From NCBI GenBank assembly GCA_019338205.1, contig GCA_019338205.1_4761.1: a stretch of 64,000 nt of DNA, one strand, 5' to 3'. Both the position numbers and the translations under genes were made by a program. Below the pieces are notes generated by a model. It ran no database searches. It was not told where the DNA came from and worked only from the letters and a program-made list of their open reading frames with translations. Shown here piece after piece: positions 7,460 to 63,670 of this stretch (its first letter is position 1; each line of letters starts with the position of its first letter). The DNA comes from a phage.

Positions 7460-7486
7460 AGCCATCCTTCGGGGTGGCTTTTTTGT
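7460..7486 (+). terminator. intrinsic terminator (PeSL-type stem-loop) after hoc
   Basis: agccatcc-ttcg-gggtggct hairpin followed by TTTTTTG. Confidence 0.6.
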
Positions 7487-7494
7487 TTTTGTGC

Positions 7495-7522
7495 TTGACA
7501 GAGCGATTTAGATGCCTATAAT
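7495..7522 (+). promoter_or_regulatory. sigma70-like early promoter (TTGACA-16-TATAAT)
   Basis: cTTGACA at 7495-7500 and TATAAT at 7517-7522, directly after terminator hairpin. Confidence 0.55.
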
Positions 7523-7649
7523 GGCACGCATCGACCTGCTACTGTCCATAGTGAGGCGAAGAAAATATTATGAATATGGGGTTGAAAATGGCTTTAATAA
7601 CTGTTACTGTCCTATTCGCTGTTGTGTTTATGAATGTATGAGGTGAAGT

Positions 7650-8168: not shown

Positions 8169-8606
8169 ATGAAATTCCGTAAAAACCACGTAGCAATGAA
8201 AAAGGCAATGTTCGAAGCATTCAAAGCAGTTGATCAGGGCGGTGTTACTCTGATTGAGCAAATTAATGTTGATGTTTGGCAATCTCCGGCGATCACCTGC
8301 TCCCGTCTTGCTACGGCTGGCCTTCTGAAAGTTCACAGCTCTACCGCATACGACGAAGCATTGCAAGTTATTAAGGCTTTTGCAGGAGACGTTACCAGCA
8401 AGTGGGTCTATGAGAATAAAGGTGAAATTGCGGTTGCTCACGTAGGCAACAATATCCAGATGGAAATCAAGATTAAGGAAGGGTCTAAACGCAATCAGAT
8501 GCTTGTTCGCTTCCAGCCATACAAAACTAACGTAGTGCCGGATGATCTGATCATCTCTAAGAGTAATGTTACCATTCGCCGAAATCAGATCGTTATCAAC
8601 AAATAA
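8169..8606 (+). CDS. hypothetical protein (145 aa)
   Basis: RBS AGAGGTGA; followed by terminator hairpin. Confidence 0.5.
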   Translation: MKFRKNHVAMKKAMFEAFKAVDQGGVTLIEQINVDVWQSPAITCSRLATAGLLKVHSSTAYDEALQVIKAFAGDVTSKWVYENKGEIAVAHVGNNIQMEIKIKEGSKRNQMLVRFQPYKTNVVPDDLIISKSNVTIRRNQIVINK

Positions 8607-8640: not shown

Positions 8641-8697
8641 TATCTGTTATTAACATAATTTTAGTTTACATGTGCACAATATTAATACTGTTTGATT

Positions 8698-8752
8698 AAA
8701 TTATGATCAAAACGAAGAAAGATCTTTAGAACATAGAAAATGTATCTTTGGT
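8698..8752. repeat. intergenic repeat element, copy A (aaattatgatcaaaacgaagaaagatctttagaa...)
   Basis: About 50 bp motif shared with 8847-8900 and 45762-45815. Confidence 0.5.
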
Positions 8753-8846
8753 TAATTATTAATCACTACATATTGTAACACAAATGTTATACTCCGTAGG
8801 AGTTCGCGAAGCGATATCCTTTTGTGTAGTTTTTACATGTATGATG

Positions 8847-8900
8847 AAATTATGATCAAAACGAAGACTTATCTTATAGAATAATAAAAATTTGTTTCGA
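8847..8900. repeat. intergenic repeat element, copy B
   Basis: aaattatgatcaaaacgaagacttatcttatagaataataaaaatttgtttcg; degenerate direct repeat of copy A about 150 bp upstream. Confidence 0.5.
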
Positions 8901-8966
8901 ACATTTATTAATCAATTATTGGAAGTGTTTTATTGCTCGCTGTGCTCGCTTCCGCTACGCGGATAC

Positions 8967-32220: not shown

Positions 32221-32465
32221 TTTCTAGTTCCCCACATACCGAAAGTTGGATTATACACAAAATAGATAGCTTCGTCGATAGTCTTGAATCGTTTAGTGTC
32301 ATTCATGAAGTTGATACCCTCCCATAGTTCATCGGTGTAATCGGCTAGTGATGAATGAGTATGATCGATGATCTCTCCAATCTTTTCACCGTTCGCGATC
32401 ACATCCCAACCGCAAGGGGATACCTGAATTGCTTCACAATTATCTGTAAATTTACGACGTGCCAT
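32208..32465 (-). CDS. hypothetical protein (85 aa), first gene of inserted cassette
   Basis: Strong RBS GGAGG; overlaps next ORF by 13 nt. Confidence 0.4.
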   Translation of the reverse strand: MARRKFTDNCEAIQVSPCGWDVIANGEKIGEIIDHTHSSLADYTDELWEGINFMNDTKRFKTIDEAIYFVYNPTFGMWGTRKWHA

Positions 32466-32575
32466 AATTTATCCTCCGTTGTTTAGATGTGTGTATTATA
32501 CCTTACCAAATAAGATTGTCAACACCAAAAATGGAAAAAGCCAACTCTCTCGAATTGGCTTTTAAAATCATACAC

Positions 32576-42394: not shown

Positions 42395-43090
42395 ATGGAC
42401 TATCAAAAACATTATGATCGATTAATTGAACGCGCAAAGCATAGAACGCTTGAAGGATATAAAGAAAAACATCATATTATTCCTCGTTGTATGGGAGGCG
42501 ATGATAGTCCAGAAAATATAGTTGAGTTAACGGGGTCTGAACATTTTGTTGCTCATCAACTTTTAGCAAAAATGCATCCAACACATCACGGAATTGTACA
42601 TGCGGCGAAAATATTGATGGGGTCTACCAACTATAACAATAAACAATTTGAGTGGGTAAGAAAACTTGCGGTCGAGACTTCAAGAAAATTTCATACAGGA
42701 AGAAAAAGATCCGAAGAGACTAGACGCAGAATATCAGAAGCAACTAAAGGAAAGAGAAAAGGAATTAAATTATCTGAGGAACATCGACAGAAATTATCTG
42801 CTTCATTAAAAGGTAGAGTGTTTACAGAAGAACATAAAAGAAATATTGCGTCAAGAGAAATTACACAAGAATGGAGAGACAACATCTCTAAAGCGGGTAA
42901 GGGTAGAAAGTTGTCACAAGAAAACGTAGAGAAATGGAAACGTATTCATAACACGCCAGAAATGAAACAAAAATATAGTGAATTGTCAAAGTCTCGTCCG
43001 TATTTCACCTGTCCTCATTGTGAAAAAACAGCCAATCAGGGAAATTATGTTAGATGGCATGGTGACAACTGCAAGAAGAAGGTGGTATAA
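42395..43090 (+). CDS. HNH homing endonuclease (Mob-like, NUMOD-type repeats, C-terminal Zn-ribbon)
   Basis: 231 aa; HNH core KHHIIPRCMGGDDSPENIVELTGSEHFVAH; repeated basic modules (GRKRSEETRRRISEATKGK, KLSEEHRQKLSASLKGR); CPHC; inserted between 53 and 4. Confidence 0.75.
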   Translation: MDYQKHYDRLIERAKHRTLEGYKEKHHIIPRCMGGDDSPENIVELTGSEHFVAHQLLAKMHPTHHGIVHAAKILMGSTNYNNKQFEWVRKLAVETSRKFHTGRKRSEETRRRISEATKGKRKGIKLSEEHRQKLSASLKGRVFTEEHKRNIASREITQEWRDNISKAGKGRKLSQENVEKWKRIHNTPEMKQKYSELSKSRPYFTCPHCEKTANQGNYVRWHGDNCKKKVV

Positions 43091-43563
43091 TGGGTAATTG
43101 CAACACATATAAGGGTAAATATAGACCTGAAAACCCGGAGAAGTATAAAGGCGACCTGAAAAAAATCGTCTACAGGTCAAGTTGGGAATTACATATAATG
43201 AAATTTTTAGACCGCAATCCTAGAGTTGCAAAATGGGGATCTGAGACCGTAGTAATTCCTTATGAGTCATCAACAGACGGAAAAAGACACAGATACTTTA
43301 TGGATTTTTACGTTAAGTTTGATGATGGCAAGGAGCATTTATGGGAAGTTAAACCAGCTAAAGAGACAAGGCCACCGGAAAAGCCAAAAAGAATGACCGC
43401 GAAGACAAAGCAACGATATATGCATGAAGTATGGACATACACAAAAAATACTGAAAAATGGTTAGCTGCCGTGAAATTATGCCAAAAGCATAACATGGAG
43501 TTTAAGATCATAACCGAACATGCATTAAAGAAAGTGTTTGGCTTTAAAGGGCTTAACAAATAG
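43090..43563 (+). CDS. 4: head completion nuclease gp4-like (PD-(D/E)xK fold)
   Basis: 157 aa; candidate D...EVK catalytic motif (FMDFYV...LWEVKP); position next to gene 2 as in T4. Confidence 0.55.
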   Translation: MGNCNTYKGKYRPENPEKYKGDLKKIVYRSSWELHIMKFLDRNPRVAKWGSETVVIPYESSTDGKRHRYFMDFYVKFDDGKEHLWEVKPAKETRPPEKPKRMTAKTKQRYMHEVWTYTKNTEKWLAAVKLCQKHNMEFKIITEHALKKVFGFKGLNK

Positions 43564-43574
43564 AGGATAATATT

Positions 43575-44396
43575 ATGAGCGTATTTGAAATAATCACAGA
43601 AGACGAAAAGCCGTCTCCCCAAAAACGAAAGTCTAAACAGTGGGTCGAATTGGGTGTAGAATTTGCGAAAGCAAAAGCCAAAGGCATGACAGCTAAAGCA
43701 TTTGCAGATTCTAAGGGAATAGCCTATGCGACTTTCACTAAAAGTATGTCTCGTTATGCCAGCGAAATTAAAACAGCAATAGAAGTTGAAAAACTAAAAG
43801 GGAAAAGTGCAAAGGGTCTCAATAAGCAGCAACGCGCAATGATGATGATTAATGATTTTCGTGCGTCTATGCGTGCTGTATCAAAGAGTCGTCCTAAAGA
43901 AAAATCACAGGAATGGTTTACTAAAACAATAAAAGCGGGAATAAAGGGACACCAGATTGTAAAACCGCAAGTAGGGCGAATCTATACCTTTATGTATGAT
44001 GCTAAGTATAAAGACACTTTGCCATATTGGGATGTTTTCCCACTGATCATTTGTCTGGGTGATTCTAAGACAAAGGCGGGTAATACTGTAATGCTGGGTC
44101 TTAACTTACACTATGTAACGCCTAAAGCCCGTCAGCAGTTTCTGGAAGCACTTTTAAAGCAATATGCATCTACTCCTACCTTGAGTAATAAAACACGCTT
44201 AAAAATCAAATGGAGCGATGTAAAAGGTATGCGTGGTAGTGACCACATGATCAAAGCATATCTACCGGGACACATTAAAACAAAACTTGTTGAGATTAGC
44301 CCGAAAGACTGGAGCAATATTATCTACCTTAACACATATAAATTTGTTTCTAAAGGTAAAAACTATGATGCAAGGAAGGTGTGGAAGGATGCTTAA
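43575..44396 (+). CDS. 2: DNA end protector protein gp2
   Basis: 273 aa (T4 gp2 274 aa); basic; RBS AGAGGA; synteny 4-2-3-1. Confidence 0.7.
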   Translation: MSVFEIITEDEKPSPQKRKSKQWVELGVEFAKAKAKGMTAKAFADSKGIAYATFTKSMSRYASEIKTAIEVEKLKGKSAKGLNKQQRAMMMINDFRASMRAVSKSRPKEKSQEWFTKTIKAGIKGHQIVKPQVGRIYTFMYDAKYKDTLPYWDVFPLIICLGDSKTKAGNTVMLGLNLHYVTPKARQQFLEALLKQYASTPTLSNKTRLKIKWSDVKGMRGSDHMIKAYLPGHIKTKLVEISPKDWSNIIYLNTYKFVSKGKNYDARKVWKDA

Positions 44397-45417
44397 TATT
44401 AATTCCGTGGGGAGCAATCCCCACGTTTATTATCTTCGTCAACCGGAAGAAATAGAATACAGAGTAAACAAGGTAACAAAATCTCCTAGAGAATTTGCGG
44501 ATAAAGTTATTGAAAGGTGTAAACTTGTCGACCATACATTCTTAGGATTTTCTGGAGAATGGAAAGGAAAATTGACTAGATCTGTTATCCAATGCAATAA
44601 GCATGGAACTGTCTATGATGTTTCCAGTAATAGTTTCTATGCTAAAAAGGTTATTGTTGGTTGCCCTCAATGTAGGGGAGTTATGACAGAAGAGGAAGCA
44701 ACCAAATTCATTGAAGAAAAATGTAAAGATCTTGATTATGAATTTTTGGGATTTGTTGGTGGCTGGAAATCACAAATTACTAAGATGATTCTTAGATGCA
44801 AGAAACATGACCATATTTGGAAGAATACAAAGTTCTTTGATTTTAAAAATCATGGTACATGTGGTTGTAAGAAATGTGCGGCTGAACAATTTAAGACGGA
44901 ATATGTCGTTCCCGTGGAAGATGCACTATCTAGAATAGAAGATAAATGTAAAAAGTTAGGGTATGAATATATAGGTGTCGATGGTGAATGGATAGGTACT
45001 GCAAATTCATGGATAAAACTTAAATGTACAAAACATGACGCAGAATTTTCTGTAAGATATTGTACGTTCAACAGAAATGCTAAAGGGTGTCCGAAATGTA
45101 GTTCTTCTGGCTATCGTCCATCTGAGATGGGATATTTTTATATCCAGACGTTAGATGATAAATTTATAAAGTTTGGTGTAACCAATGAATTACCGGAAAC
45201 CAGAATGAAACAACATATGCAGAAATCTAAGTTTGTTCACAAACTTGTTTACGTCAAACAAAGTGTTGATGGCTGGATTCCGTGGGAACTTGAAAAGGAA
45301 ATAAAGAGAACTTATCATTGTGGCGTTGTTGATAAATCCATGTTGAAAGATGGATACACAGAAACTTTACCAATCACGGAACTTGATAACATAATTAAAT
45401 TAGCTGATACATATTAA
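44389..45417 (+). CDS. three-fold Zn-ribbon repeat protein with C-terminal T5orf172 (GIY-YIG-like) domain
   Basis: Three about 60 aa repeats (FLGF.GEW.G...C.KH...C.C, each ending CPQC / GCKKC / GCPKC) then GYFYIQTLDDKFIKFGVTNE...; start at ATG 44389 (RBS GGAAGG); inserted between 2 and 3. Confidence 0.5.
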   Translation: MLNINSVGSNPHVYYLRQPEEIEYRVNKVTKSPREFADKVIERCKLVDHTFLGFSGEWKGKLTRSVIQCNKHGTVYDVSSNSFYAKKVIVGCPQCRGVMTEEEATKFIEEKCKDLDYEFLGFVGGWKSQITKMILRCKKHDHIWKNTKFFDFKNHGTCGCKKCAAEQFKTEYVVPVEDALSRIEDKCKKLGYEYIGVDGEWIGTANSWIKLKCTKHDAEFSVRYCTFNRNAKGCPKCSSSGYRPSEMGYFYIQTLDDKFIKFGVTNELPETRMKQHMQKSKFVHKLVYVKQSVDGWIPWELEKEIKRTYHCGVVDKSMLKDGYTETLPITELDNIIKLADTY

Positions 45418-45423
45418 AATTAA

Positions 45424-45446
45424 GCCCGTCATTGACGGGCTTTTTA
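45424..45446 (+). terminator. intrinsic terminator
   Basis: gcccgtc-att-gacgggc hairpin followed by TTTTT. Confidence 0.55.
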
Positions 45447-45701: not shown

Positions 45702-45761
45702 AAGAAGTCCTCGTATAGTACCCGTTTTATTTATTACTGTATAAAAATATAGTTATTGGTT

Positions 45762-45815
45762 AAAATATAACCAAAACGAAGAAAGATCTTTAGAATAATA
45801 GAAAATTTGTTTCGG
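45762..45815. repeat. intergenic repeat element, copy C
   Basis: aaaatataaccaaaacgaagaaagatctttagaataatagaaaatttgtttcgg; same motif as 8698-8752 and 8847-8900. Confidence 0.5.
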
Positions 45816-45891
45816 TTAAAAAGTAGTCAGTGCCTCCGGCACGTCGCAAAGCGACAATTGTTAATAAATATTTTCATTTGAGGAATCAGTA

Positions 45892-47914: not shown

Positions 47915-47921
47915 TTCTATA

Positions 47922-47946
47922 CCCCGAAAATTTTTCGGGGTTTTTT
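47922..47946 (+). terminator. intrinsic terminator (PeSL stem-loop)
   Basis: ccccgaaaa-t-ttttcgggg palindrome plus TTTTTTG. Confidence 0.65.
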
Positions 47947-47957
47947 GTTTTTAGTTG

Positions 47958-47986
47958 TTGACAACCATAAACGACTATAGCATAAT
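47958..47986 (+). promoter_or_regulatory. early promoter cassette type I (TTGACA-17-CATAAT plus conserved leader)
   Basis: TTGACA, 17 nt, tagCATAAT, then conserved leader ATCGAAACGAAACAC...GGAGAATCAAA-ATG. Confidence 0.6.
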
Positions 47987-48023
47987 GCACATATCGAAAC
48001 GAAACACACTTAGGAGAATCAAA

Positions 48024-48404
48024 ATGATGATGATGATGTTTAAAGATAAATTCGAATGTCACTACACCCGTAACTTTGACTTAGTATCCCGCTACTACAT
48101 TCATAAAGAAACTGGCACGCAAGTAGTTCTTGAATCTCACAGCGAAGTAGGATTCGATTCAACAAAAGTAGCAATTAGTGCTCGCTTCTGGGATAACGGC
48201 AAATTTGCTTATATCGCTTGGAACGACGACGAAAATATAATTACAGTAGCTTTCGGTGATGACTACTACACTAAAAAGACTTTCGATAGTAAGCCATCAA
48301 ATGAATACCTGAAAGCGTATGTGCAGCACATGTTCCAACGTGTTCTGACCGGAATGGAAATCAATGTCATGAAAGACATTGTAGACGAAGTAAAATATTC
48401 TTAA
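48024..48404 (+). CDS. early hypothetical protein (126 aa)
   Basis: ATG 13 nt after conserved GGAGAATCAAA leader. Confidence 0.55.
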   Translation: MMMMMFKDKFECHYTRNFDLVSRYYIHKETGTQVVLESHSEVGFDSTKVAISARFWDNGKFAYIAWNDDENIITVAFGDDYYTKKTFDSKPSNEYLKAYVQHMFQRVLTGMEINVMKDIVDEVKYS

Positions 48405-48410
48405 AAATAG

Positions 48411-48439
48411 TTGACAACATGAAACGGGGGTAGTAAGAT
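48411..48439 (+). promoter_or_regulatory. early promoter cassette type II (TTGACA with G5-N10-C5 inverted repeat over -10)
   Basis: TTGACA at 48411; cggggg-tagtaagata-ccccc; leader CGAAAGGAGAATCAAA-ATG. Confidence 0.5.
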
Positions 48440-48470
48440 ACCCCCACAAACAAACGAAAGGAGAATCAAA

Positions 48471-48629
48471 ATGAAATTCATCGGTAAAACTTTTATGTTC
48501 GTAGCTGGTACTCTGTTTACTGCAACTCTGTTAGCTGGTGGCTTAGATATCTTTACTGCCTTTGAAACTTTCGGGTATACTGTAGCATCGGGTGCTCTCT
48601 TCGGATTGGGTTTAGCGATTAGCAAATAA
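48471..48629 (+). CDS. small hydrophobic protein (52 aa)
   Basis: MKFIGKTFMFVAGTLFTATLLAGG...; behind type II cassette; below track cutoff. Confidence 0.45.
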   Translation: MKFIGKTFMFVAGTLFTATLLAGGLDIFTAFETFGYTVASGALFGLGLAISK

Positions 48630-48638
48630 GGTGATAAT

Positions 48639-48842
48639 ATGGAATTGGATATGGTTAAAGCAAAATTTATGGGTAAGGATAAGAGCGGTAAAACATTTGT
48701 TATTAATAGAACATTGTTTAGCTCTGACCTTAAGTGGGTAACACAACAATTTGCGGAAGTCAACGAGGCAGTTGTGACATGCTTCGTTGATGGTAAAAAA
48801 GTTTTTGAAATTGATCGTCGTGGGGTGTCTAATGATCGCTAA
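48639..48842 (+). CDS. hypothetical protein (67 aa)
   Basis: RBS AAGGTGA. Confidence 0.45.
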   Translation: MELDMVKAKFMGKDKSGKTFVINRTLFSSDLKWVTQQFAEVNEAVVTCFVDGKKVFEIDRRGVSNDR

Positions 48843-49029
48843 ACTGTTTAGCAATACTTTGTTTCTGATTGCATTTGTTTTCTTTCTGTGTCTGATCATC
48901 GGTGTGATTGCAGTCGGTAGTTATTCCGGTATTACAATAGATGATTTTTGTATGTTGGTTTTCTTTTCAAGTGTTCCTACACTCCTGATCGCTGTATGTG
49001 GTGCTTTTAGATGGATCTGTGATCTATGA
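48832..49029 (+). CDS. small membrane protein (65 aa)
   Basis: Internal ATG of track ORF 48787-49029; two TM helices; overlaps upstream stop. Confidence 0.4.
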   Translation: MIAKLFSNTLFLIAFVFFLCLIIGVIAVGSYSGITIDDFCMLVFFSSVPTLLIAVCGAFRWICDL

Positions 49030-49136
49030 CTGAACAGGAACGAATGATGTTGATAGGTGGACCTGAGTTCACTAAATTTGATGCAATTCTTATTGCGTTT
49101 GGTTTTCTTATGATCTGTTGTATGGTGGCGCTATGA
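49026..49136 (+). CDS. mini membrane protein (36 aa)
   Basis: ATGA overlaps at both ends suggest translational coupling; hydrophobic C-terminus. Confidence 0.3.
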   Translation: MTEQERMMLIGGPEFTKFDAILIAFGFLMICCMVAL

Positions 49137-49357
49137 GTAGTATAAAATATTTCGCTTTCTTGTGCTTTATGATGTTCTTTACATTCTTTGCATGTGTTTT
49201 CTTTACCTGGCTTGCTCATGTTGATAATGCAACCGGACCGTTTTACTTCTTCTGTGTATTGTCTGTGTTGACTGGTGCTCTTGTTACGTGGATGATTCGA
49301 GATTGTTACGGAATGTATAAGTTTGAAAAGACTCGACCGAAATGGGGCAAACGATGA
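49133..49357 (+). CDS. small membrane protein (74 aa)
   Basis: In-frame ATG of track ORF 49118-49357; two TM helices. Confidence 0.4.
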   Translation: MSSIKYFAFLCFMMFFTFFACVFFTWLAHVDNATGPFYFFCVLSVLTGALVTWMIRDCYGMYKFEKTRPKWGKR

Positions 49358-49536
49358 AATTATTTGCGTGGCTAATTATTTTAAATGTAATTGTTAAGAC
49401 CTTTCTCGCTGGTCTGATGATGGCGCATAGCACGAAACCAGAAGAAGCATTAACGTATTTTGTTGCTTATGTGCTGGGATTCTTGCTTACTGCGTGGATG
49501 TGTGATGAATATCGAAGAATTGAGGTAAAACCATGA
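49354..49536 (+). CDS. small membrane protein (60 aa)
   Basis: ATGA overlap with upstream gene; hydrophobic. Confidence 0.4.
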   Translation: MKLFAWLIILNVIVKTFLAGLMMAHSTKPEEALTYFVAYVLGFLLTAWMCDEYRRIEVKP

Positions 49537-49751
49537 AAATGACTTTTTATATCTTAGCAAGTATCATGCTTGTGATCTCTTCTGCATTATTTGCATTTCT
49601 TACCGTTTGGGGGATCTGTACTGATGCGAAGCCGTGGGATATCGTAGAAAATACGGTTATGTTTATTATTAGTGTCATGTGTCTTTTTGATGCATTTAAC
49701 TCTATCAAGGAAGAAGACCAAAAACGTCGCGATAGAAAGCGATATAAATAA
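49533..49751 (+). CDS. small membrane protein (72 aa)
   Basis: RBS GAGGT; two TM helices and basic C-terminal tail. Confidence 0.45.
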   Translation: MKMTFYILASIMLVISSALFAFLTVWGICTDAKPWDIVENTVMFIISVMCLFDAFNSIKEEDQKRRDRKRYK

Positions 49752-49899
49752 TAGTGAACTAAAGACAGCGCGGTTAGAATGATTTGGACGTCACCTAGCC
49801 GCATTTATTGCAGCGTATGGGCGATCCGGTACGCTAAAGCATTCACTTGCTAGGCCGCTAGCAGGTTGGAGACAAGGAAGATTCGCTACCTTCCCTATA

Positions 49900-49926
49900 A
49901 GCCACTCTTCGGAGTGGCTTTTTTAT
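49900..49926 (+). terminator. intrinsic terminator (PeSL stem-loop)
   Basis: agccactc-ttcg-gagtggct plus TTTTTT. Confidence 0.65.
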
Positions 49927-49952
49927 TGCCTAAAATTTTTTTAAAAAAGTTG

Positions 49953-49981
49953 TTGACACCAGATCCGGCCTATAGCATAAT
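49953..49981 (+). promoter_or_regulatory. early promoter cassette type I
   Basis: A-rich upstream tract, TTGACA-17-CATAAT, conserved leader, ATG 50028. Confidence 0.6.
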
Positions 49982-50027
49982 ACACCCATCGAAACGAAAC
50001 ACACTTTCTTAAACGGAGAATCAAATT

Positions 50028-50213
50028 ATGGCACGTCGCATCACTAAAGCACTGAAAGCAGTAAGCAAAGAAAACGTAGTAGCTATTCTGGTAATCTGGG
50101 GTTATAACGAAGAATCCGCTAAACAGAAAGTTGAAGCAGGGTTTGAACTGGCAGTAAAAGCAATGCCGAATGATGACTCTGTAGGACTGGCAAACTATAT
50201 TGCATATTTCTGA
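50028..50213 (+). CDS. early hypothetical protein (61 aa)
   Basis: Behind type I cassette. Confidence 0.5.
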   Translation: MARRITKALKAVSKENVVAILVIWGYNEESAKQKVEAGFELAVKAMPNDDSVGLANYIAYF

Positions 50214-50221
50214 TAAAAGTG

Positions 50222-50250
50222 TTGACAGGGGAGGATAACTCCCCTACAAT
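50222..50250 (+). promoter_or_regulatory. early promoter cassette type II (TTGACA, ggggag-gataa-ctcccc, TACAAT)
   Basis: Inverted repeat fills the spacer between -35 and -10. Confidence 0.5.
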
Positions 50251-50279
50251 ACAACCATCAACGAAACGGGAGAATCAAA

Positions 50280-50507
50280 ATGATTAACTTTAAAGACGCA
50301 GCAAAAGAAATTATCGACTTTGAGCGCGAACTGTTTGAGATTGAACCGCAGATGGGTAAAATGGAACTGGCTAACCAGATCTGGGCTACTAGACTGAATC
50401 CGACTGACCGCTTAGAGATCATGAACCTTGTAGGTGCAAGCGACATGAAAGGTGGTGCGATGGCTAAACTCCGTAAATGCACCGCATACATTGCAGAACA
50501 ACTTTAA
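50280..50507 (+). CDS. early hypothetical protein (75 aa)
   Basis: Behind type II cassette. Confidence 0.5.
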   Translation: MINFKDAAKEIIDFERELFEIEPQMGKMELANQIWATRLNPTDRLEIMNLVGASDMKGGAMAKLRKCTAYIAEQL

Positions 50508-50519
50508 TTGGAGGGTTTT

Positions 50520-50708
50520 ATGGGAGAGAAACCATTAACGCAACTGAGAGTACGCTATTATCAGATCTTAGCATTGCTTAACGCTGAGGGCGTAGATCCA
50601 TCGGACCGCGAGGCTGTAAAAGCGTGCTTATCTGATACGGTACAGCCAAAACAAAATTATGCTTGCTATATGTACTTTCAAAATCGTTTGAATAACGTTA
50701 AGTGTTGA
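50520..50708 (+). CDS. early hypothetical protein (62 aa)
   Basis: RBS GGAGGG then ATG 50520; track start 50508 is TTG. Confidence 0.45.
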   Translation: MGEKPLTQLRVRYYQILALLNAEGVDPSDREAVKACLSDTVQPKQNYACYMYFQNRLNNVKC

Positions 50709-50717
50709 GGTGATACT

Positions 50718-50906
50718 ATGGAAGACCAAATTGAACAATTACGCGAATCCGCTAAAGAGCATGGTATGAGCGAAGAGTTTGTAGAATGGTTTATTTCTAA
50801 AAAGGCTGATTCCTGCGGGTGCTTTACCTTCATCACTATGTCCATTATGTGGGAGGGTTGGAAAGGTGCTGTAGAAACTGCTCTAGAAATTATGAAAAAA
50901 GACTAA
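50718..50906 (+). CDS. early hypothetical protein (62 aa)
   Basis: RBS GAGG. Confidence 0.45.
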   Translation: MEDQIEQLRESAKEHGMSEEFVEWFISKKADSCGCFTFITMSIMWEGWKGAVETALEIMKKD

Positions 50907-50914
50907 AAAAGTTG

Positions 50915-50943
50915 TTGACACACGAGAGGGTGTATAGCATAAT
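50915..50943 (+). promoter_or_regulatory. early promoter cassette type I
   Basis: aaaaaaGTTGTTGACA-17-CATAAT then conserved leader; ATG 50986. Confidence 0.6.
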
Positions 50944-50985
50944 ACACCCATCGAAACGAAACACGAACTACTAAGGAGTATCAAA

Positions 50986-58789: not shown

Positions 58790-59004
58790 AGAAGCCTAAT
58801 ACCGCTCACATGAAAGAAAACTGCCGATGTGTTAGATGTGGTTGGCCTATTATATTCACTTGCTGTAACGACGATATGCAGCGTTTACCGTGGGGAATGT
58901 GGGATTGGTGGATGTATTGCAGCAATAAAGGTTGCGACCATCATGAAGGTGAAGGAGTCTTTCAGGAAACACCTGATTGGGTGGAGGTGATAGAAAATGC
59001 TTGA
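58786..59004 (+). CDS. small Cys-rich protein (72 aa)
   Basis: CRCVRC...CC...C..C; RBS GGAGT. Confidence 0.4.
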   Translation: MKKPNTAHMKENCRCVRCGWPIIFTCCNDDMQRLPWGMWDWWMYCSNKGCDHHEGEGVFQETPDWVEVIENA

Positions 59005-59290
59005 GACTATCATTAATCTTGTTGTGTGGACTTTTATTTTCGTTATTGTTATTATGGCGGGTGTAGAGATTGTAAAACAATATCTATTGCAATCTCGAAA
59101 TAAACATGTTGTCGTTGATATGGACTCGCAAGGCAATAAGTTGATCCGGTTAGAAGATGGTCGGGAATATTGGGTCGGGTATCCCAAAACTCTGAAAGGG
59201 TTTATCCTTGCCATGAGCATTAACATCTTTTTCATTGGTATCTGGACTTATATCGGTTTAGGTCTTGTTGGATTTTTGGAGATTAATTAA
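58997..59290 (+). CDS. membrane protein (97 aa)
   Basis: N- and C-terminal TM helices; RBS GGAGGTGA. Confidence 0.45.
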   Translation: MLETIINLVVWTFIFVIVIMAGVEIVKQYLLQSRNKHVVVDMDSQGNKLIRLEDGREYWVGYPKTLKGFILAMSINIFFIGIWTYIGLGLVGFLEIN

Positions 59291-59886
59291 TGGCGCAATT
59301 ATATTTCTACTATGCATCTATGAACGCTGGCAAATCAACTTCTCTGTTACAAAGTGCTTATAACTATACCGAACGTGATATGCGAGTATTAATTCTTAAG
59401 CCAGCGATTGATAATCGAGATTCAGAAAGTGAAGTCGTTTCCCGAATTGGCCTAAGTGCCCCAGCGATCACCTTCACTAAATCGGATGATCTTTTCGATT
59501 TGGTTTATCGTGAATCGTTAGGTAAGCGTAGACCGGATCGATGGCGTCCAGATGCAGTTTTTGTAGACGAAGCCCAATTTATGACTAAAGAGCATGTTTT
59601 AGGCTTGTGTGCGCTTGTTGATGATGCTAATATCCCTGTACTGTGCTATGGCCTTCGCACTGACTTTCAGGGCAATCTATTTGAAGGATCTGCGGCATTA
59701 ATGGCATTTGCTGATAAGCTGGTCGAAATGAAGGGTATTTGTCATTGTGGCAAGAAAGCGACTATGGTCCTTCGCGTAGATAAAGATGGTAATGTTATTC
59801 GCGATGGTGCTCAAATAGAAGTTGGTGCAGAGGATAAATATGTTTCGGTGTGCCGTAAACATTTTATTGACGGTACTACCAAATAA
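59290..59886 (+). CDS. tk: thymidine kinase
   Basis: 198 aa; ...YASMNAGKSTSLLQSA..., VFVDEAQF, YGLRTDFQGNLFEGS, CHCGKKA align with recalled T4 Tk. Confidence 0.93.
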   Translation: MAQLYFYYASMNAGKSTSLLQSAYNYTERDMRVLILKPAIDNRDSESEVVSRIGLSAPAITFTKSDDLFDLVYRESLGKRRPDRWRPDAVFVDEAQFMTKEHVLGLCALVDDANIPVLCYGLRTDFQGNLFEGSAALMAFADKLVEMKGICHCGKKATMVLRVDKDGNVIRDGAQIEVGAEDKYVSVCRKHFIDGTTK

Positions 59887-59913
59887 GAGTTAATCATAAA
59901 TAAAGCCCCAGAT

Positions 59914-59921
59914 TATAAATA
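59914..59921 (+). promoter_or_regulatory. T4-type late promoter (TATAAATA) inside inverted repeat, upstream of RI-like gene
   Basis: Exact TATAAATA on plus strand 33 nt before ATG 59954, flanked by CCCCAGAT / ATCTGGGG. Confidence 0.45.
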
Positions 59922-59953
59922 TAACTGAATATTTCAATCTGGGGGAATGACTT

Positions 59954-60256
59954 ATGTCATTTATTCGTAAAACTCTAACAGCGGCAATATGCTTGACTGC
60001 GGTCGGAAGTGTCAGTGCTGATCAATATGATCCAACTGGTGACTTTACTGATTATTTCGACGGCGCAATGATAGTATATGTAAACAAAATATCTCCTTCC
60101 ATTGAAACCAGCCAGAAATTTCATGCCCATATTATGAAGATGTATGCTCGTAGTAAATGTATGGATTCTAGGCAGTGTTTTATTATGGGTGGATATGCCG
60201 CACAACAATTTGTTCTGTTGCATAATATGGAGAATCGAGAACATGAAATTCAGTGA
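59954..60256 (+). CDS. secreted periplasmic protein, RI (lysis-inhibition antiholin)-like
   Basis: 100 aa; signal-anchor MSFIRKTLTAAICLTAVGSVSA; spacing of DP...DF and C.....C resembles T4 RI; tk-adjacent as rI is in T4. Confidence 0.4.
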   Translation: MSFIRKTLTAAICLTAVGSVSADQYDPTGDFTDYFDGAMIVYVNKISPSIETSQKFHAHIMKMYARSKCMDSRQCFIMGGYAAQQFVLLHNMENREHEIQ

Positions 60257-60641
60257 TTTTCTAAAGACTTCCGAAGAGGGAAAGGCTAATAAAGTTGACC
60301 GCTTTATCGGTGAATGTCTGATGAGTGTTACTTATATGCATTCTGCGCATTTTGGGGTAACTGGTCCTGGATCTTATGCAAAACATAAGGCTCTAGAAGA
60401 GTTCTATCTTGAAATGCAAGAATTGGTTGATAATTTCACTGAAACCAATATTGGGATCACTGGTCGTTATCAGCCAAAGTTGGTCGTCCGCAAGGAGATT
60501 AGCGAAATTGCCTATTTGCAAGAGTTAACGCAAATGGCTAGTGAGATTTATAATGATGTTGATAGCTCGTTACAGAGTGTTTTAGACGATATCAAAGCTC
60601 TATGCTTTAAAACAATTTATAAACTCACTCGACTGGCTTAA
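60243..60641 (+). CDS. early hypothetical protein (132 aa)
   Basis: In-frame ATG of track ORF 60144-60641; helical. Confidence 0.45.
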   Translation: MKFSDFLKTSEEGKANKVDRFIGECLMSVTYMHSAHFGVTGPGSYAKHKALEEFYLEMQELVDNFTETNIGITGRYQPKLVVRKEISEIAYLQELTQMASEIYNDVDSSLQSVLDDIKALCFKTIYKLTRLA

Positions 60642-60874
60642 TGTTAGTCACCGTGGGATGCATACCATAAGTAAAAGAATACTAGCATTAACACAACTAT
60701 TTGGCTTCCTCATACTTTCGCGTGTTCAATTACTGCCGAATCGGAAGACCCGTCTAAGACGAGGAAGGGTTATCATTGGAAAGGGATGGTGAATTGGTTA
60801 CTATGTTTAACTAGTTTAGCAAAGGTCGATTCAAACACTACTATACAAATGGACGTGAATAAAATATAATCAAA

Positions 60875-60900
60875 AGCCATCCGAAAGGGTGGCTTTTTCG
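60875..60900 (+). terminator. intrinsic terminator (PeSL stem-loop)
   Basis: agccatcc-gaaa-gggtggct plus TTTTTCGTTTTT. Confidence 0.6.
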
Positions 60901-60910
60901 TTTTTATGTG

Positions 60911-60939
60911 TTGACAACCGGAATAGGGTATAGCATAAT
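60911..60939 (+). promoter_or_regulatory. early promoter cassette type I
   Basis: TTGACA-17-CATAAT, leader ...CATCGACAACAAAGGAGAATCAAA-ATG. Confidence 0.6.
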
Positions 60940-60968
60940 GCACACATCGACAACAAAGGAGAATCAAA

Positions 60969-61178
60969 ATGATTAATCCAGTAGCCGCAGCACTTGCTTC
61001 CGAAGAAACTTTGAAGTATATGGTAGAACATGCAGCAAAGAAAGGAGAAATTGTTACTGCCGATGAGATCGTAGAAACCATGCTCCGCGATCCGAATGGT
61101 AACACTGCAAAGTTTTTCGGTGATCATCTTAAACTGGCTTACAAAACAATTATGGAGACCGTGAAAAATGCAAAATGA
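60969..61178 (+). CDS. early hypothetical protein (69 aa)
   Basis: Behind type I cassette. Confidence 0.5.
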   Translation: MINPVAAALASEETLKYMVEHAAKKGEIVTADEIVETMLRDPNGNTAKFFGDHLKLAYKTIMETVKNAK

Positions 61179-61506
61179 TGTGATTGAAGTTATTATGAAT
61201 CAATACCGAAACCGGATTTGGTCTGGACGTATCAAAGAAGAAAAGGCAAAACGGATCATCGAAAAATATGCTGAAAAGACTAAGCAAGCGCCAACGGCTA
61301 ACAGAGTTATGATTCTTAAATGTCTGGTGCTTTCCGGTGACGATATGCCTATTGATGCAGAGACAGCCACCGATTTTCATAAGACCTATCGCCAGTGTGA
61401 TGTAATTTTTACTTCTGGCTTCGGTAGTTATGACTCTATTATGTGGAATTTAATGCACCTTGACGCAACGATCTGGGATGTACTTTCGGAGGAGGGTTAC
61501 AAATGA
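61168..61506 (+). CDS. early hypothetical protein (112 aa)
   Basis: RBS GGAGA; overlaps upstream gene by 11 nt. Confidence 0.45.
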   Translation: MQNDVIEVIMNQYRNRIWSGRIKEEKAKRIIEKYAEKTKQAPTANRVMILKCLVLSGDDMPIDAETATDFHKTYRQCDVIFTSGFGSYDSIMWNLMHLDATIWDVLSEEGYK

Positions 61507-61853
61507 ACATTGACATTCAACGACTAATTGATCACCTTCACGCGGGAATACCTTATCATGGCGACGTTACCCGTGATATTCTTGATGTGTTGGAATATAC
61601 CCAGCAAGTGATCAACGAAAAGCAAGCATTAGAATCACGGATCGACGAGGCAATAGGAAACATTGCAACCGAAGATGAATTAGATAATCACTTTGGACCT
61701 GTTCTTGATGCTCTTATGGCTGCGCGTGATACCAAACTGAAACAGGATAAACAAGAATTTATCCTTGATGGTTTAGCTCGTTATCACAATGCAATTGATA
61801 TTATGAATAACCAGCATGATTATGCTATTAGTGTTTTGCGAGGTCTGGCATGA
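61503..61853 (+). CDS. early hypothetical protein (116 aa)
   Basis: ATGA overlap coupling. Confidence 0.45.
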   Translation: MNIDIQRLIDHLHAGIPYHGDVTRDILDVLEYTQQVINEKQALESRIDEAIGNIATEDELDNHFGPVLDALMAARDTKLKQDKQEFILDGLARYHNAIDIMNNQHDYAISVLRGLA

Positions 61854-62134
61854 AAGACACAAACGAATTTAACTGTATTCAGGTAAGCCCGAATTTTATT
61901 GTTCCATCACTGGTGACTAAGCTGAATGGTCATATGGTCGCTTTGTCTTCCACACCGCCAGAATCAGGAAAGTTTATTACTATCGTAGTTTATGCGGGGC
62001 AAATTTTCTCTCATGATTGCTGCATGAAAAATGGTCAGTTGATGGTTGCAAATTATGACTACGGCGACCTTGAATGGGAAGTTTTAGGACTGGCTAAATG
62101 CGCTGAAATTCTGGGCTATATTCGATTAATTTAA
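61850..62134 (+). CDS. early hypothetical protein (94 aa)
   Basis: ATGA overlap coupling. Confidence 0.45.
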   Translation: MKDTNEFNCIQVSPNFIVPSLVTKLNGHMVALSSTPPESGKFITIVVYAGQIFSHDCCMKNGQLMVANYDYGDLEWEVLGLAKCAEILGYIRLI

Positions 62135-62152
62135 ATTTTTTCTTAGAAAGTG

Positions 62153-62181
62153 TTGACAGCGATCCGGTGTCATTGCATAAT
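62153..62181 (+). promoter_or_regulatory. early promoter cassette type I
   Basis: TTGACA-17-CATAAT plus conserved leader; ATG 62223. Confidence 0.6.
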
Positions 62182-62222
62182 ACACCCATCGAAACGAGAT
62201 ACACTTTCTAGGAGAATCAAAA

Positions 62223-62444
62223 ATGGCAACTGTTAAAATTATCAAATCTTCCGCTGGTTTCGGTTTCATGCGTGGAGCTAAGTACCCGATGATTATTGAA
62301 AACGTTGCCATCGAAGATGGTATGGCTAAAGTGACCAGCCGTCAATTGTTCGAAGCTGGTGTTAAAACTGCTGAATCATGGGCGCTTCGTTACCCAAACA
62401 AAACTTGGTCTTTCTTCCTGAATGGAGAAGCAGAGGTCATCTAA
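62223..62444 (+). CDS. early hypothetical protein (73 aa)
   Basis: Behind type I cassette; followed by terminator. Confidence 0.5.
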   Translation: MATVKIIKSSAGFGFMRGAKYPMIIENVAIEDGMAKVTSRQLFEAGVKTAESWALRYPNKTWSFFLNGEAEVI

Positions 62445-62462
62445 GTAATATTATTAATCAAT

Positions 62463-62485
62463 GCCCCTTAAATGGGGCTTTTCTT
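62463..62485 (+). terminator. intrinsic terminator
   Basis: gcccc-ttaaat-ggggc plus TTTTCTT. Confidence 0.55.
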
Positions 62486-62498
62486 GTGAGGAAACTTT

Positions 62499-63278
62499 AT
62501 GGCAATATCTTCTGGATGGGTAGGATCATCTGCTGTGTCCGAGACTGGTCAACGGTGGATGAGCGCCGCAATGCAAGCTGTTCGCTTAGGTCGTCCGGCG
62601 TATATGTCGGCAATGGTCGGACGCTCTAAAGAGATTCATTATAGCATTGGCGCTAGTAATAGTTACAATAAAGATACGCTTATTAACTGGATGAAAGCAC
62701 AGTGATCTACTCCGGTAGTAATTACTATCACTGGTAATATTGTTTCCCAATCTACTGGCGTTCCTTGTCTTGACTTCCCTAGCTCGTTAACAAATGAATA
62801 TGTAACATTGATCATTAACTCCGGTGTTCATGTTTGGGGGCGTGGTGGTAATGGTGGCAATAACTCCGCTGGTGGTGCTGGTGGTAATGCAATAAATAAC
62901 GGAATTGGAACTAGATTACGTATTAACAACAATGGTGTTATCGCAGGCGGCGGTGGCGGTGGAGGTGGTGGGTATTATTCTCCTACGAAACCAATGAAAT
63001 TAACTTTTGGTGGTGGCGGCGGTCGTCCGTTTGGTGCTGCTGGTGGATCTGCCAACATGCAATCAGGCGCAACTGCTGGTACTATTTCCGCGCCAGGTAA
63101 AGGGTCTGTCAACGGTGTATATAATGGCGGTAACGGTGGTGATGCTGGCGGTGCTGGTGGTAAATGTAATATCCGTGGACAGGGATCGGAATATAATGGC
63201 GGTGCGGCTGGTAAGGCTGTTACTGGCAATGCCCCTCGCTGGGATAAAGTAGGCACGATCTACGGTGCTCGCGTGTAA
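62499..63278 (+). pseudogene. 38: T2-type gp38 tail-fibre adhesin homolog interrupted by one in-frame TGA (codon 69)
   Basis: MAISSGWVGSSAVSETGQRWMS... then TGA at 62703-62705, then same frame continues ...LTNEYVTLIINSGVHVWGRGGNGG...AGGGGGGGGGYYSP...RWDKVGTIYGARV; both halves match recalled T2 gp38. Confidence 0.6.
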
Positions 63279-63285
63279 TTTTATG

Positions 63286-63311
63286 GGCTATCCTTCGGGA
63301 TAGCCTTTTTG
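63286..63311 (+). terminator. intrinsic terminator (PeSL stem-loop)
   Basis: ggctatcc-ttcg-ggatagcc plus TTTTTGTTTTTT. Confidence 0.65.
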
Positions 63312-63322
63312 TTTTTTGGGTG

Positions 63323-63350
63323 TTGACAATGAAAATCATAGTGCTATAAT
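63323..63350 (+). promoter_or_regulatory. early promoter cassette type I with extended -10 (TGcTATAAT)
   Basis: TTGACA-16-TATAAT preceded by TGc; leader ...CCAACTAAGGAGAATCAAAG-ATG. Confidence 0.6.
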
Positions 63351-63379
63351 GCACACATACCAACTAAGGAGAATCAAAG

Positions 63380-63670
63380 ATGACCGCTGAACAATTAATC
63401 AAACATATCCGCAACATTATTTGGGATCTGTCTGGTGATAAAGAGGAACAGGCTGAACGCATTTTAGCTAAACTCTATGAGCGCCGTGACCGTGGAGTAT
63501 CCGTAAAGAAAGTAGAAACTTTCAAAGAGTTATCTTTCATCGAAGCTAAAAAGGATGGATTAATTTATCAGTTGACAGATGGTTACTGGTGCTATGATAA
63601 TACTCGCTATGACACCGCGACTGATGCATTAAAAGCATGTAATGACCATCTTCGCAAAACTACCATTTGA
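63380..63670 (+). CDS. early hypothetical protein (96 aa)
   Basis: Behind type I cassette. Confidence 0.5.
   Translation: MTAEQLIKHIRNIIWDLSGDKEEQAERILAKLYERRDRGVSVKKVETFKELSFIEAKKDGLIYQLTDGYWCYDNTRYDTATDALKACNDHLRKTTI

Follow-up and report, generated by a model that had tools for sequence, protein, structure and literature searches.

Promoter-early Stem-Loop cassettes (PeSLs) were defined by Arbiol, Comeau, Kutateladze, Adamia and Krisch in 2010 (Genome Biol Evol 2:140; PMC2839356) in the T4-type coliphages phi1 and RB49, which carry about 52 and 51 of them, respectively. A PeSL combines a promoter of the sigma-70 consensus, an AT-rich upstream tract and a stem-loop, often of polyG and polyC, with a Shine-Dalgarno sequence and start codon at its 3' end; five sub-classes are distinguished by the position of the stem-loop (PMC2839356). 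The cassettes cluster in hyperplastic regions, where they precede genes of unknown function, and rare ones lie in virion modules and beside hoc (PMC2839356). In lacZ fusions, the PeSL206/205 promoter gave about 13,000 Miller units and the PeSL211/210 terminator was comparable in activity to rrnB T1; in addition, recombination between neighbouring PeSLs yields mini-circles, which were detected experimentally (PMC2839356). Comeau, Arbiol and Krisch in 2014 gave TTGACA-N17-TATAAT, accompanied by a G(n)-loop-C(n) stem, as the signature of RB49/phi1 PeSLs (PMC4122927); this follow-up is the only later PeSL work that we found in the literature. Here we analyse a 64,000-nt stretch of phage DNA (contig GCA_019338205.1_4761.1; hereafter the window), in which an intergenic repeat heads short blocks of small open reading frames (ORFs), and we conclude that the copies of this repeat are PeSLs, with a probability that we put at about 90%.

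The window belongs to the phage group in which PeSLs were first described. Between 47.8 and 52.8 kb it is 97-98% identical in nucleotide sequence, over the full length, to JEP8, Sf20, RB49, GEC-3S, Phi1 and about 50 other phages; the 22.5 kb from 41.5 to 64 kb show the same pattern against the same phages, and JSE is also among those with ~97% identity. On this identity to RB49-like coliphages, we therefore assign the window to a T4-type coliphage of the genus Krischvirus. A scan of the window for tRNAs found none, and Rfam gave no match at gathering thresholds over the whole window; at a permissive threshold, 47.8-50.3 kb gave only sub-threshold, terminator-like matches.

We found that the repeat family is real, occupies the positions given in the table below and far exceeds chance expectation. 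The exact pattern TTGACA-N17-CATAAT has six matches in the window against 0.01 expected; the word GGAGAATCAAA, with at most one mismatch, has nine (2.2 expected), eight of them inside cassettes; and the leader word CATCGAAACGAAACAC, with at most three mismatches, has four (0.78 expected), being exact in two copies and within two mismatches in four. A repeat finder placed the copies in overlapping families (D1, D2, D3, D5 and D8). When an nhmmer profile built from ten copies was run over both strands of the window, it returned exactly ten strong matches (E 2e-16 to 5e-11), the next match lying at E 0.011. Nine of these ten copies, all on the + strand, fall within 47.9-63.4 kb; the tenth, on the − strand, is flanked by baseplate genes of the late block, where it follows a 331-aa ORF and precedes two small ORFs. 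The first-pass annotation had listed ten sites, and nine of them are true members; its site at 7460 is only a partial one, which the profile did not retrieve, and it had omitted the − strand copy at 32522. The partial member has hoc directly upstream, and only the first ~12 nt of its leader are family-like, without GGAGAATCAAA. An IMG/VR scan for the exact pattern of promoter plus leader start retrieved only four viral contigs, three of them of 137-165 kb, and this version of the sequence is therefore lineage-specific.

Each cassette is an intergenic block of 70-130 nt, with the stop codon of the upstream gene at its 5' end and a Shine-Dalgarno sequence and start codon at its 3' end. The first-pass annotation had described one uniform element, consisting of a GC-rich terminator hairpin with a T-run, an A-rich tract, TTGACA-17-CATAAT and a nearly invariant leader ending at the ATG; this description fits in full at 49900 and in part at the other sites. 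All ten copies carry TTGACA, but the −10 box is exactly CATAAT in only five, being TAAGAT, TACAAT, TAATAT or TATAAT in the others, and the spacer is 16 nt rather than 17 in some. The −10 box thus matches TATAAT at four to six of six positions, the whole promoter matches at 10-12 of 12, and the general form is GTTGACA-N16/17-[C/T]ATAAT. The 20 nt upstream of the −35 box average 77% A+T (range 65-95%) versus 59% for the window; this tract is A-rich in copies with a hairpin in the promoter, but T-rich in the others, where it forms the tail of the upstream terminator. Downstream of the −10 box, most copies continue directly with a conserved (A/G)CAC(C/A)CATCGAAAC, and then with 0-20 nt of variable, A/C-rich sequence. 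Within the leader, near-invariance is confined to the 11-nt ribosome-binding module GGAG(A/T)AT(C/T)AAA (GGAGAATCAAA), which ends 0-2 nt before the ATG; its GGAG stands 7-9 nt before the ATG in all copies, while the leader as a whole, counted from the 3' edge of the −10 box up to the start codon, varies between 28 and 46 nt.

The stem-loop likewise departs from the uniform description. Nine of the ten strong copies have exactly one strong hairpin (−12.8 to −19.4 kcal/mol, z −3.5 to −5.4), which lies upstream with a T-run in five, in the spacer in one and over the −10 box in three. The upstream terminators, at 47921, 49899, 60872, 63285 and 32563(−) together with that of the partial member at 7460, range from −12.8 to −16.6 kcal/mol (z −3.8 to −5.4). 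In copies 48411, 50222, 50915 and 56272, the hairpin lies within the spacer or over the −10 box and has no T-run. In copy 62153 no hairpin reaches significance (z −0.8), although a remnant of 5 bp, GGTGT...ACACC, can still be made out.

Table. Cassettes, related junctions, predicted early transcription units and neighbouring genes in the window (positions in nt; hairpin energies in kcal/mol).
Feature	Position	Strand	Stem-loop or terminator	Promoter	Leader, start codon and genes	Profile match
Cassette 1	47921..48026	+	terminator 47921-47941 with T-run; −12.8, z −3.8	−35 47958-47963; −10 CATAAT 47981-47986	GGAGAATCAAA 48013-48023; ATG 48024; 126-aa protein of unknown function	47953; E 3e-14
Cassette 2	48400..48473	+	GGGGGTA...TACCCCC 48426-48445, over −10 box; −14.0, z −3.5	A-rich tract; −35 48411-48416; −10 TAAGAT 48434-48439	GGAGAATCAAA 48460-48470; ATG 48471	48400; E 6e-12
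Cassette 3	49899..50030	+	terminator 49899-49920 with T-run; −14.8, z −4.2	A/T tract; −35 49953; −10 CATAAT 49976-49981	exact CATCGAAACGAAACAC 49987-50002; GGAGAATCAAA 50015-50025; ATG 50028; 61-aa protein, DUF7421	49941; E 4e-16
Cassette 4	50211..50282	+	GGGGAGG-ATAAC-TCCCC 50227-50245, fills spacer; −19.4, z −4.5	−35 50222; −10 TACAAT 50245-50250	GGAGAATCAAA 50269-50279; ATG 50280	50211; E 2e-12
Cassette 5	50904..50988	+	GGGTGTAT...ATACACCC 50928-50949, over −10 box; −14.6, z −4.0	−35 50915; −10 CATAAT 50938-50943	exact CATCGAAACGAAACAC 50949-50964; GGAGTATCAAA 50975-50985; ATG 50986	50904; E 2e-16
Cassette 6	56260..56331	+	GGGGGTA...TACCCCC 56287-56306, over −10 box; −15.3, z −3.9	−35 56272; −10 TAATAT 56295-56300	GGAGTATTAAA 56318-56328; ATG 56329	56260; E 1e-14
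Cassette 7	60872..60971	+	terminator 60872-60897 with T-run; −16.6, z −5.4	−35 60911; −10 CATAAT 60934-60939	GGAGAATCAAA 60958-60968; ATG 60969	60906; E 1e-15
Cassette 8	62133..62225	+	not significant, z −0.8	A/T tract; −35 62153; −10 CATAAT 62176-62181	CATCGAAACGAGATAC; GGAGAATCAAA 62211-62221; ATG 62223	62143; E 2e-15
Cassette 9	63285..63382	+	terminator 63285-63306 with T-run; −15.3, z −3.9	−35 63323; 16-nt spacer; −10 TATAAT 63345-63350	GGAGAATCAAA 63368-63378; ATG 63380	63318; E 5e-11
Cassette 10	32463..32563	−	terminator 32563-32536 with T-run; −15.6, z −4.6	−35 32522-32517; 16-nt spacer; −10 TATAAT	ACACACATCTAAAC; GGAGGATAAAT; ATG 32465-32463; 85-aa protein of unknown function	32526-32468; E 2e-11
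Partial member	7460..7572	+	terminator 7460-7479 with T-run, same sequence family (D3); −13.5, z −3.8	TTGACA-16-TATAAT 7495-7522 (12/12)	leader start GCACGCATCGAC; small ORF from 7570	not retrieved
Degenerate PeSL-like junction	55038..55117	+	terminator 55038-55062 with T-run, overlapping the promoter; −15.6, z −3.6	weak, TTGGCT-17-TATGAT (9/12)	nrdC.11 ATG 55115	
Predicted early unit	from 47958	+			ORF125	
Predicted early unit	from 48411	+	to terminator 49899		seven small genes including dmd	
Predicted early unit	from 49953	+			ORF117	
Predicted early unit	from 50222	+			three genes	
Predicted early unit	from 50915	+	to terminator 55038		about 4 kb	
Predicted early unit	from 55056	+		weak promoter	nrdC.11 and two ORFs	
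Predicted early unit	from 56272	+			111-aa ORF and regB	
Predicted early unit	from 57114	+	to terminator 60872	10/12 match	vs.1 through rI.-1	
Predicted early unit	from 60911	+			four genes	
Predicted early unit	from 62153	+	to terminator 62463		ORF080	
Predicted early unit		+	then terminator 63285		gp38	
Predicted early unit	from 63323	+			onward	
regB endoribonuclease gene	56669..57091	+			Pfam PF10715 (REGB_T4), E 1.8e-48	
gp38 cargo example	62463..63278	+	terminator 62463-62478		gp38 tail-fibre adhesin gene 62499-63278, between cassettes 8 and 9	

The copies have every feature of the PeSL definition that can be examined in silico, and they come from the same phage group as the original definition (PMC2839356); the first-pass annotation, which had recognised them as PeSLs, was correct on this point. 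In both Phi1 and RB49, we found that all nine + strand copies have collinear orthologues, which differ little from their counterparts in the window, and the GenBank record of GEC-3S independently annotates promoters and terminators at homologous positions. The copies at 32522(−) and 7460 match the rare PeSLs of virion modules and of the neighbourhood of hoc (PMC2839356). The cassettes thus belong to a known system, established in this phage group in 2010; the published lacZ tests concerned PeSL193/192, PeSL206/205 and PeSL211/210, none of which is a copy in this window (PMC2839356). The anatomy, fold stability, orthology and recombination junctions reported here were shown by our analysis. Promoter activity and terminator or attenuator activity of the window copies are predicted, from their consensus matches and fold energies.

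If the copies work as PeSLs, unmodified host RNA polymerase would start at each cassette right after infection, with the A of CATCG, some 7 nt past the −10 box, as the probable start site, and the stem-loop would halt or attenuate transcripts arriving from the upstream unit. The accessory region would thus be split into about a dozen short, insulated early transcription units. Moreover, ~60-100 nt repeated in the same orientation would permit homologous crossover between copies by the phage recombination machinery; such a crossover would delete, insert or swap the genes in between, and its products would keep promoter, terminator and ribosome-binding site.

The genes behind the cassettes encode unrelated proteins. 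All-versus-all BLASTP of 13 proteins (the first-gene products and those encoded at 8169 and 57177) yielded no pairwise match better than E 0.03; each of the ten cassette-led proteins hits a PHROG family of its own, and all ten families are of unknown function; and among the first genes Pfam recognised only DUF7421 and LPD25. Because the downstream proteins are unrelated, we conclude that the repeat is non-coding and regulatory. That the copies are remnants of a single gene family, an outcome which the first-pass annotation had named as fatal to its own proposal, is ruled out by the BLASTP result and the ten PHROG families. Its statement that a block of small ORFs follows each copy was borne out when we combined the cassettes with the ORF map, from which we also read the early units in the table, with start sites predicted from the sequence.

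Two features of these units may be recorded here. The first gene behind cassette 1 opens with five consecutive ATG codons (48024-48038; MMMMMF...), and the starts annotated in relatives differ. Between the last gene of the dmd block and the terminator at 49899 lies a GC-rich, non-coding stretch of 147 nt (49752-49898, + strand), which together with the terminator is predicted to form four or five hairpins (−65 kcal/mol, z −4.1) and matches nothing in Rfam. Across the 59 Krischvirus records with at least 80% coverage of this stretch, its identity is 95-100%, at least as high as that of the flanking genes. This stretch may be a structured 3' untranslated region or a small RNA.

To follow recombination at the cassettes, we aligned 45.4-63.9 kb with 12 relatives and counted events larger than 100 nt. 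In the relatives' loci L001-L009, the profile matched collinear copies, each of which keeps its own variant. We found eight distinct large events, of which three have breakpoints in or beside a core cassette. In phiS, 62247-63366 is missing, which removes ORF080 and gp38; the ends overlap by 37 nt in the shared leader, and the junction is a chimaera in which the promoter and leader of cassette 8 (62153) are joined to the coding sequence that follows cassette 9 (63323). The crossover lies within the shared GGAGAATCAA / AGGAGAATCAA. The phiS deletion is a clean cassette × cassette event, as the published model predicts. In G2248, LF73P4 and KMB43, 62445-63355 is replaced by 37 nt and gp38 is again lost: a different PeSL promoter, with a CGGGGAGAAATCCCCG hairpin in its spacer, is joined to the same CATACCAACTAAGGAGAATCAAA leader, the junction falling between the −10 box and the leader of cassette 9. 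Finally, JK32, G2248 and SSG23 have an insertion of 2.0-2.2 kb directly 5' of terminator 60872, in cassette 7. The inserted ~2.1-kb ORF, for a hypothetical protein of ~712 aa, lies between rI.-1 and this terminator (L004 18196-20334; L007 19591-21735; L009 12024-14171) and is absent from the window. Homing-endonuclease insertions account for two further events, both absent from the window: one of 525/595 nt at 55080-55101, in the degenerate terminator/promoter junction, in six of the 12 relatives, and one of 644 nt at 53890-53912, unrelated to cassettes, in seven of the 12.

Two of these events remove gp38, whose product binds the receptor in RB49-like phages (PMC9569957). Four of the 12 relatives lack the gene at the early-region locus: phiS, G2248, LF73P4 and KMB43. 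In KMB43, gene 37 of the tail-fibre block is instead followed directly by a T2/T6-type gp38 (61% identity; L021 3480-4262). Krischviruses thus have two alternative locations for the adhesin gene, and the one in the early region is bounded by cassettes. The gp38 of the window, a long-tail-fibre adhesin gene of 259 codons, has an in-frame opal stop at 62703-62705, where codon 69 is TGA in place of the GGA (Gly) of GEC-3S, Phi1, RB49 and JSE; the frame is otherwise intact. This could be a nonsense mutant, a case of read-through or a sequencing error.

Several points weigh against reading the copies as working PeSLs. Their start sites and terminator efficiencies are predictions from the sequence. 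The hairpins within the promoter lack a U-tract and are therefore not canonical intrinsic terminators, and an attenuator role for them would rest on one published lacZ test of a different copy. Besides the two homing-endonuclease insertions, three more of the eight events are unrelated to cassettes. Three of 16 breakpoints lie in cassettes, which make up 5.5% of the region (binomial P about 0.05, from only eight events); this enrichment is suggestive and consistent with the recombination model, but it is not strong alone. In addition, cassette positions are stable across all 12 relatives, with no sign that the cassettes move. Of the first-pass annotation's term 'mobile-looking', what stands is recombination between and at cassettes, not movement of the cassettes themselves; the homing-endonuclease insertions, two of the eight large indels, make up a share comparable to that of the cassette events. 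Conserved positions, and large indels that mostly arise without a cassette, would also be expected if these were ordinary early promoters and terminators that came to resemble one another by independent selection to an optimum (UP-element, sigma-70 boxes, initial transcribed sequence and ribosome-binding site), recombination being a by-product of any 30-50 nt homology in a recombinogenic phage. In the profile alignment the best-conserved parts are indeed functional ones, the −35 box, −10 box and ribosome-binding site, and T4 recombination needs only short homology patches (PMC2839356). However, the likeness reaches positions without a known role in promoters, with TATAG before the −10 box, (A/G)CAC(C/A)CATCGAAAC after it and AATCAAA after GGAG, and the copies form sub-families that share these extra stretches. 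The junctions in phiS, G2248, LF73P4 and KMB43 lie exactly within shared segments, and PeSL × PeSL mini-circles have been detected experimentally (PMC2839356). We therefore regard independent selection as unlikely, though it deserves some weight; its difference from the PeSL explanation is mainly one of emphasis.

Other origins of the repeat fare worse. Short, repeated, intergenic copies with GC-rich hairpins might suggest autonomous or non-autonomous mobile elements, resembling transposons or miniature inverted-repeat transposable elements and served by a dedicated transposase or integrase, and a specific DNA-binding protein for the GGGG...CCCC stems has been speculated upon (PMC2839356). Yet neither terminal inverted repeats nor target-site duplications flank the copies, all of them are oriented as the downstream gene, their positions are invariant across relatives, simple homologous crossover explains the junctions, and neither RB49 nor phi1 has a known integrase or transposase (PMC2839356); we consider such elements very improbable. 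Two repeat pairs, D10 (50248, 60937) and D16 (62210, 63367), run about 20-25 nt past the ATG, as the conserved 5' ends of a diverged gene family might. The similarity is nevertheless concentrated upstream of the start codon, and on the BLASTP and PHROG results given above we rejected this explanation, which has scarcely any probability left.

With the copies taken as PeSLs, their ribosome-binding module may carry one function more. In T4, the RegB endoribonuclease with ribosomal protein S1 cuts early mRNAs in GG^AG (PMC1702504, PMC3014915), and the full site has the 11-nt consensus GGAGRAYARAA (Durand et al. 2006, PMC1702504; Uzan and Miller 2010, PMC3014915). We found that the cassette module GGAGAAUCAAA agrees with this consensus at 10 of 11 positions. 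Seven of the nine matches to GGAGRAYNRAA in the window lie in cassette leaders, against 1.07 expected, and a match of at least 9/11 precedes all nine + strand cassette-led genes versus three of the 40 genes located inside these operons (Fisher P 1e-7). The leaders are weakly structured, with a mean predicted unpaired probability of 0.32-0.73. The window encodes a RegB of its own, and regB has the ribosome-binding site GGATAATAAAA, that is, GGAU followed by an A-rich run; this agrees with the GGAU Shine-Dalgarno sequence of RB49 regB, which is reported in secondary sources to be cleaved in vivo (PMC3014915). In T4 the RegB/S1 target is an 11-nt single-stranded site at the ribosome-binding site of early genes, and it is not described as belonging to a repeated cassette for recombination. 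The cassette module has C at position 8, where the T4 consensus strongly prefers A, which tells against RegB recognition. RegB is mentioned in neither PeSL paper (PMC2839356, PMC4122927). By analogy with T4 biochemistry, the module could be a near-consensus RegB/S1 target, and the first cistron of each cassette mRNA would be inactivated once RegB accumulates; the cassette would then carry a shut-off signal for its first cistron. We tentatively propose, at somewhat less than even odds, that the PeSL is a four-function expression unit, instead of the promoter plus stem-loop with two functions known hitherto, in which GGAGAAUCAAA is at once ribosome-binding site, preferred crossover point and near-consensus RegB/S1 site, with gp38, lost or exchanged at cassettes in four of 12 relatives, as such cargo.

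Compared with the PeSLs of RB49 and phi1, nothing essential differs: the genus is the same, the copies are positional orthologues and their composition is the same (PMC2839356). The window adds the versions of a new isolate, and the RegB/S1 match and the loss of gp38 at cassettes are not discussed in that work (PMC2839356). The PeSLs and PmSLs of T4/PST and KVP40/nt-1 have the same architecture and the same proposed role as linkers in modular shuffling (PMC4122927), but a different consensus (TTTACW...TAYWAT and TTGYVH...TAWWAT) and different stems, and are analogues rather than sequence homologues. Integron cassettes and morons, a comparison drawn by the PeSL authors (PMC2839356), resemble PeSLs only loosely: they are likewise short accessory genes that bring along signals for their expression and insulation and are grouped in a plastic part of the genome. 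Unlike integrons, however, the window cassettes have no integrase, attC site or site-specific recombination, exchange being by general homologous recombination; and morons are not thought to move via regulatory sequences, whereas PeSL exchange uses the repeated promoter and leader sequences.

Other features of the window lie outside the cassettes. An intergenic repeat of ~80 nt has three + strand copies (8685-8765, 8834-8914 and 45749-45829; core TGATCAAAACGAAGAAAGATCTTTAGAA), located upstream of a 195-aa DprA-like ORF and of gene 3; it contains a 7-bp inverted repeat with compensatory changes between copies (TTGATTA...TGATCAA versus TTGGTTA...TAACCAA). At 42399-43207 the window has an 809-nt segment where GEC-3S, Phi1, RB49 and G2248 have 114 nt and JK32 has 8 nt. 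The ORF at 42395-43090 (+), in this segment, encodes a 231-aa protein whose NUMOD3 motif makes it a probable homing endonuclease; the insertion lies between gp53 and gp4. Finally, a variable ORF of 342 aa at 44389-45417 (+), Phi1 ORF130.1, matches the Pfam CapR homology domain (E 6e-15) and ends at a bidirectional terminator (45422-45442); Phi1 and G2248 share it with the window, and RB49, GEC-3S and JK32 lack it.

Because a description, a name and partial tests of the system have been available since 2010, our analysis neither raises nor settles an open question. Its value lies mainly in annotation, as a map of the early transcription units and of the sites at which accessory genes are swapped between relatives, and it helps the comparison of therapeutic RB49-like phages. 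To the known system it makes two small additions, the RegB-target match of the ribosome-binding module, which is a modest one, and the loss of gp38 via cassette recombination. If the four-function proposal is true, a gene captured behind a cassette would automatically gain early, insulated expression and strong translation, RegB would switch it off as the early phase ends, and gp38 as cassette cargo would link PeSL shuffling directly to host-range change.

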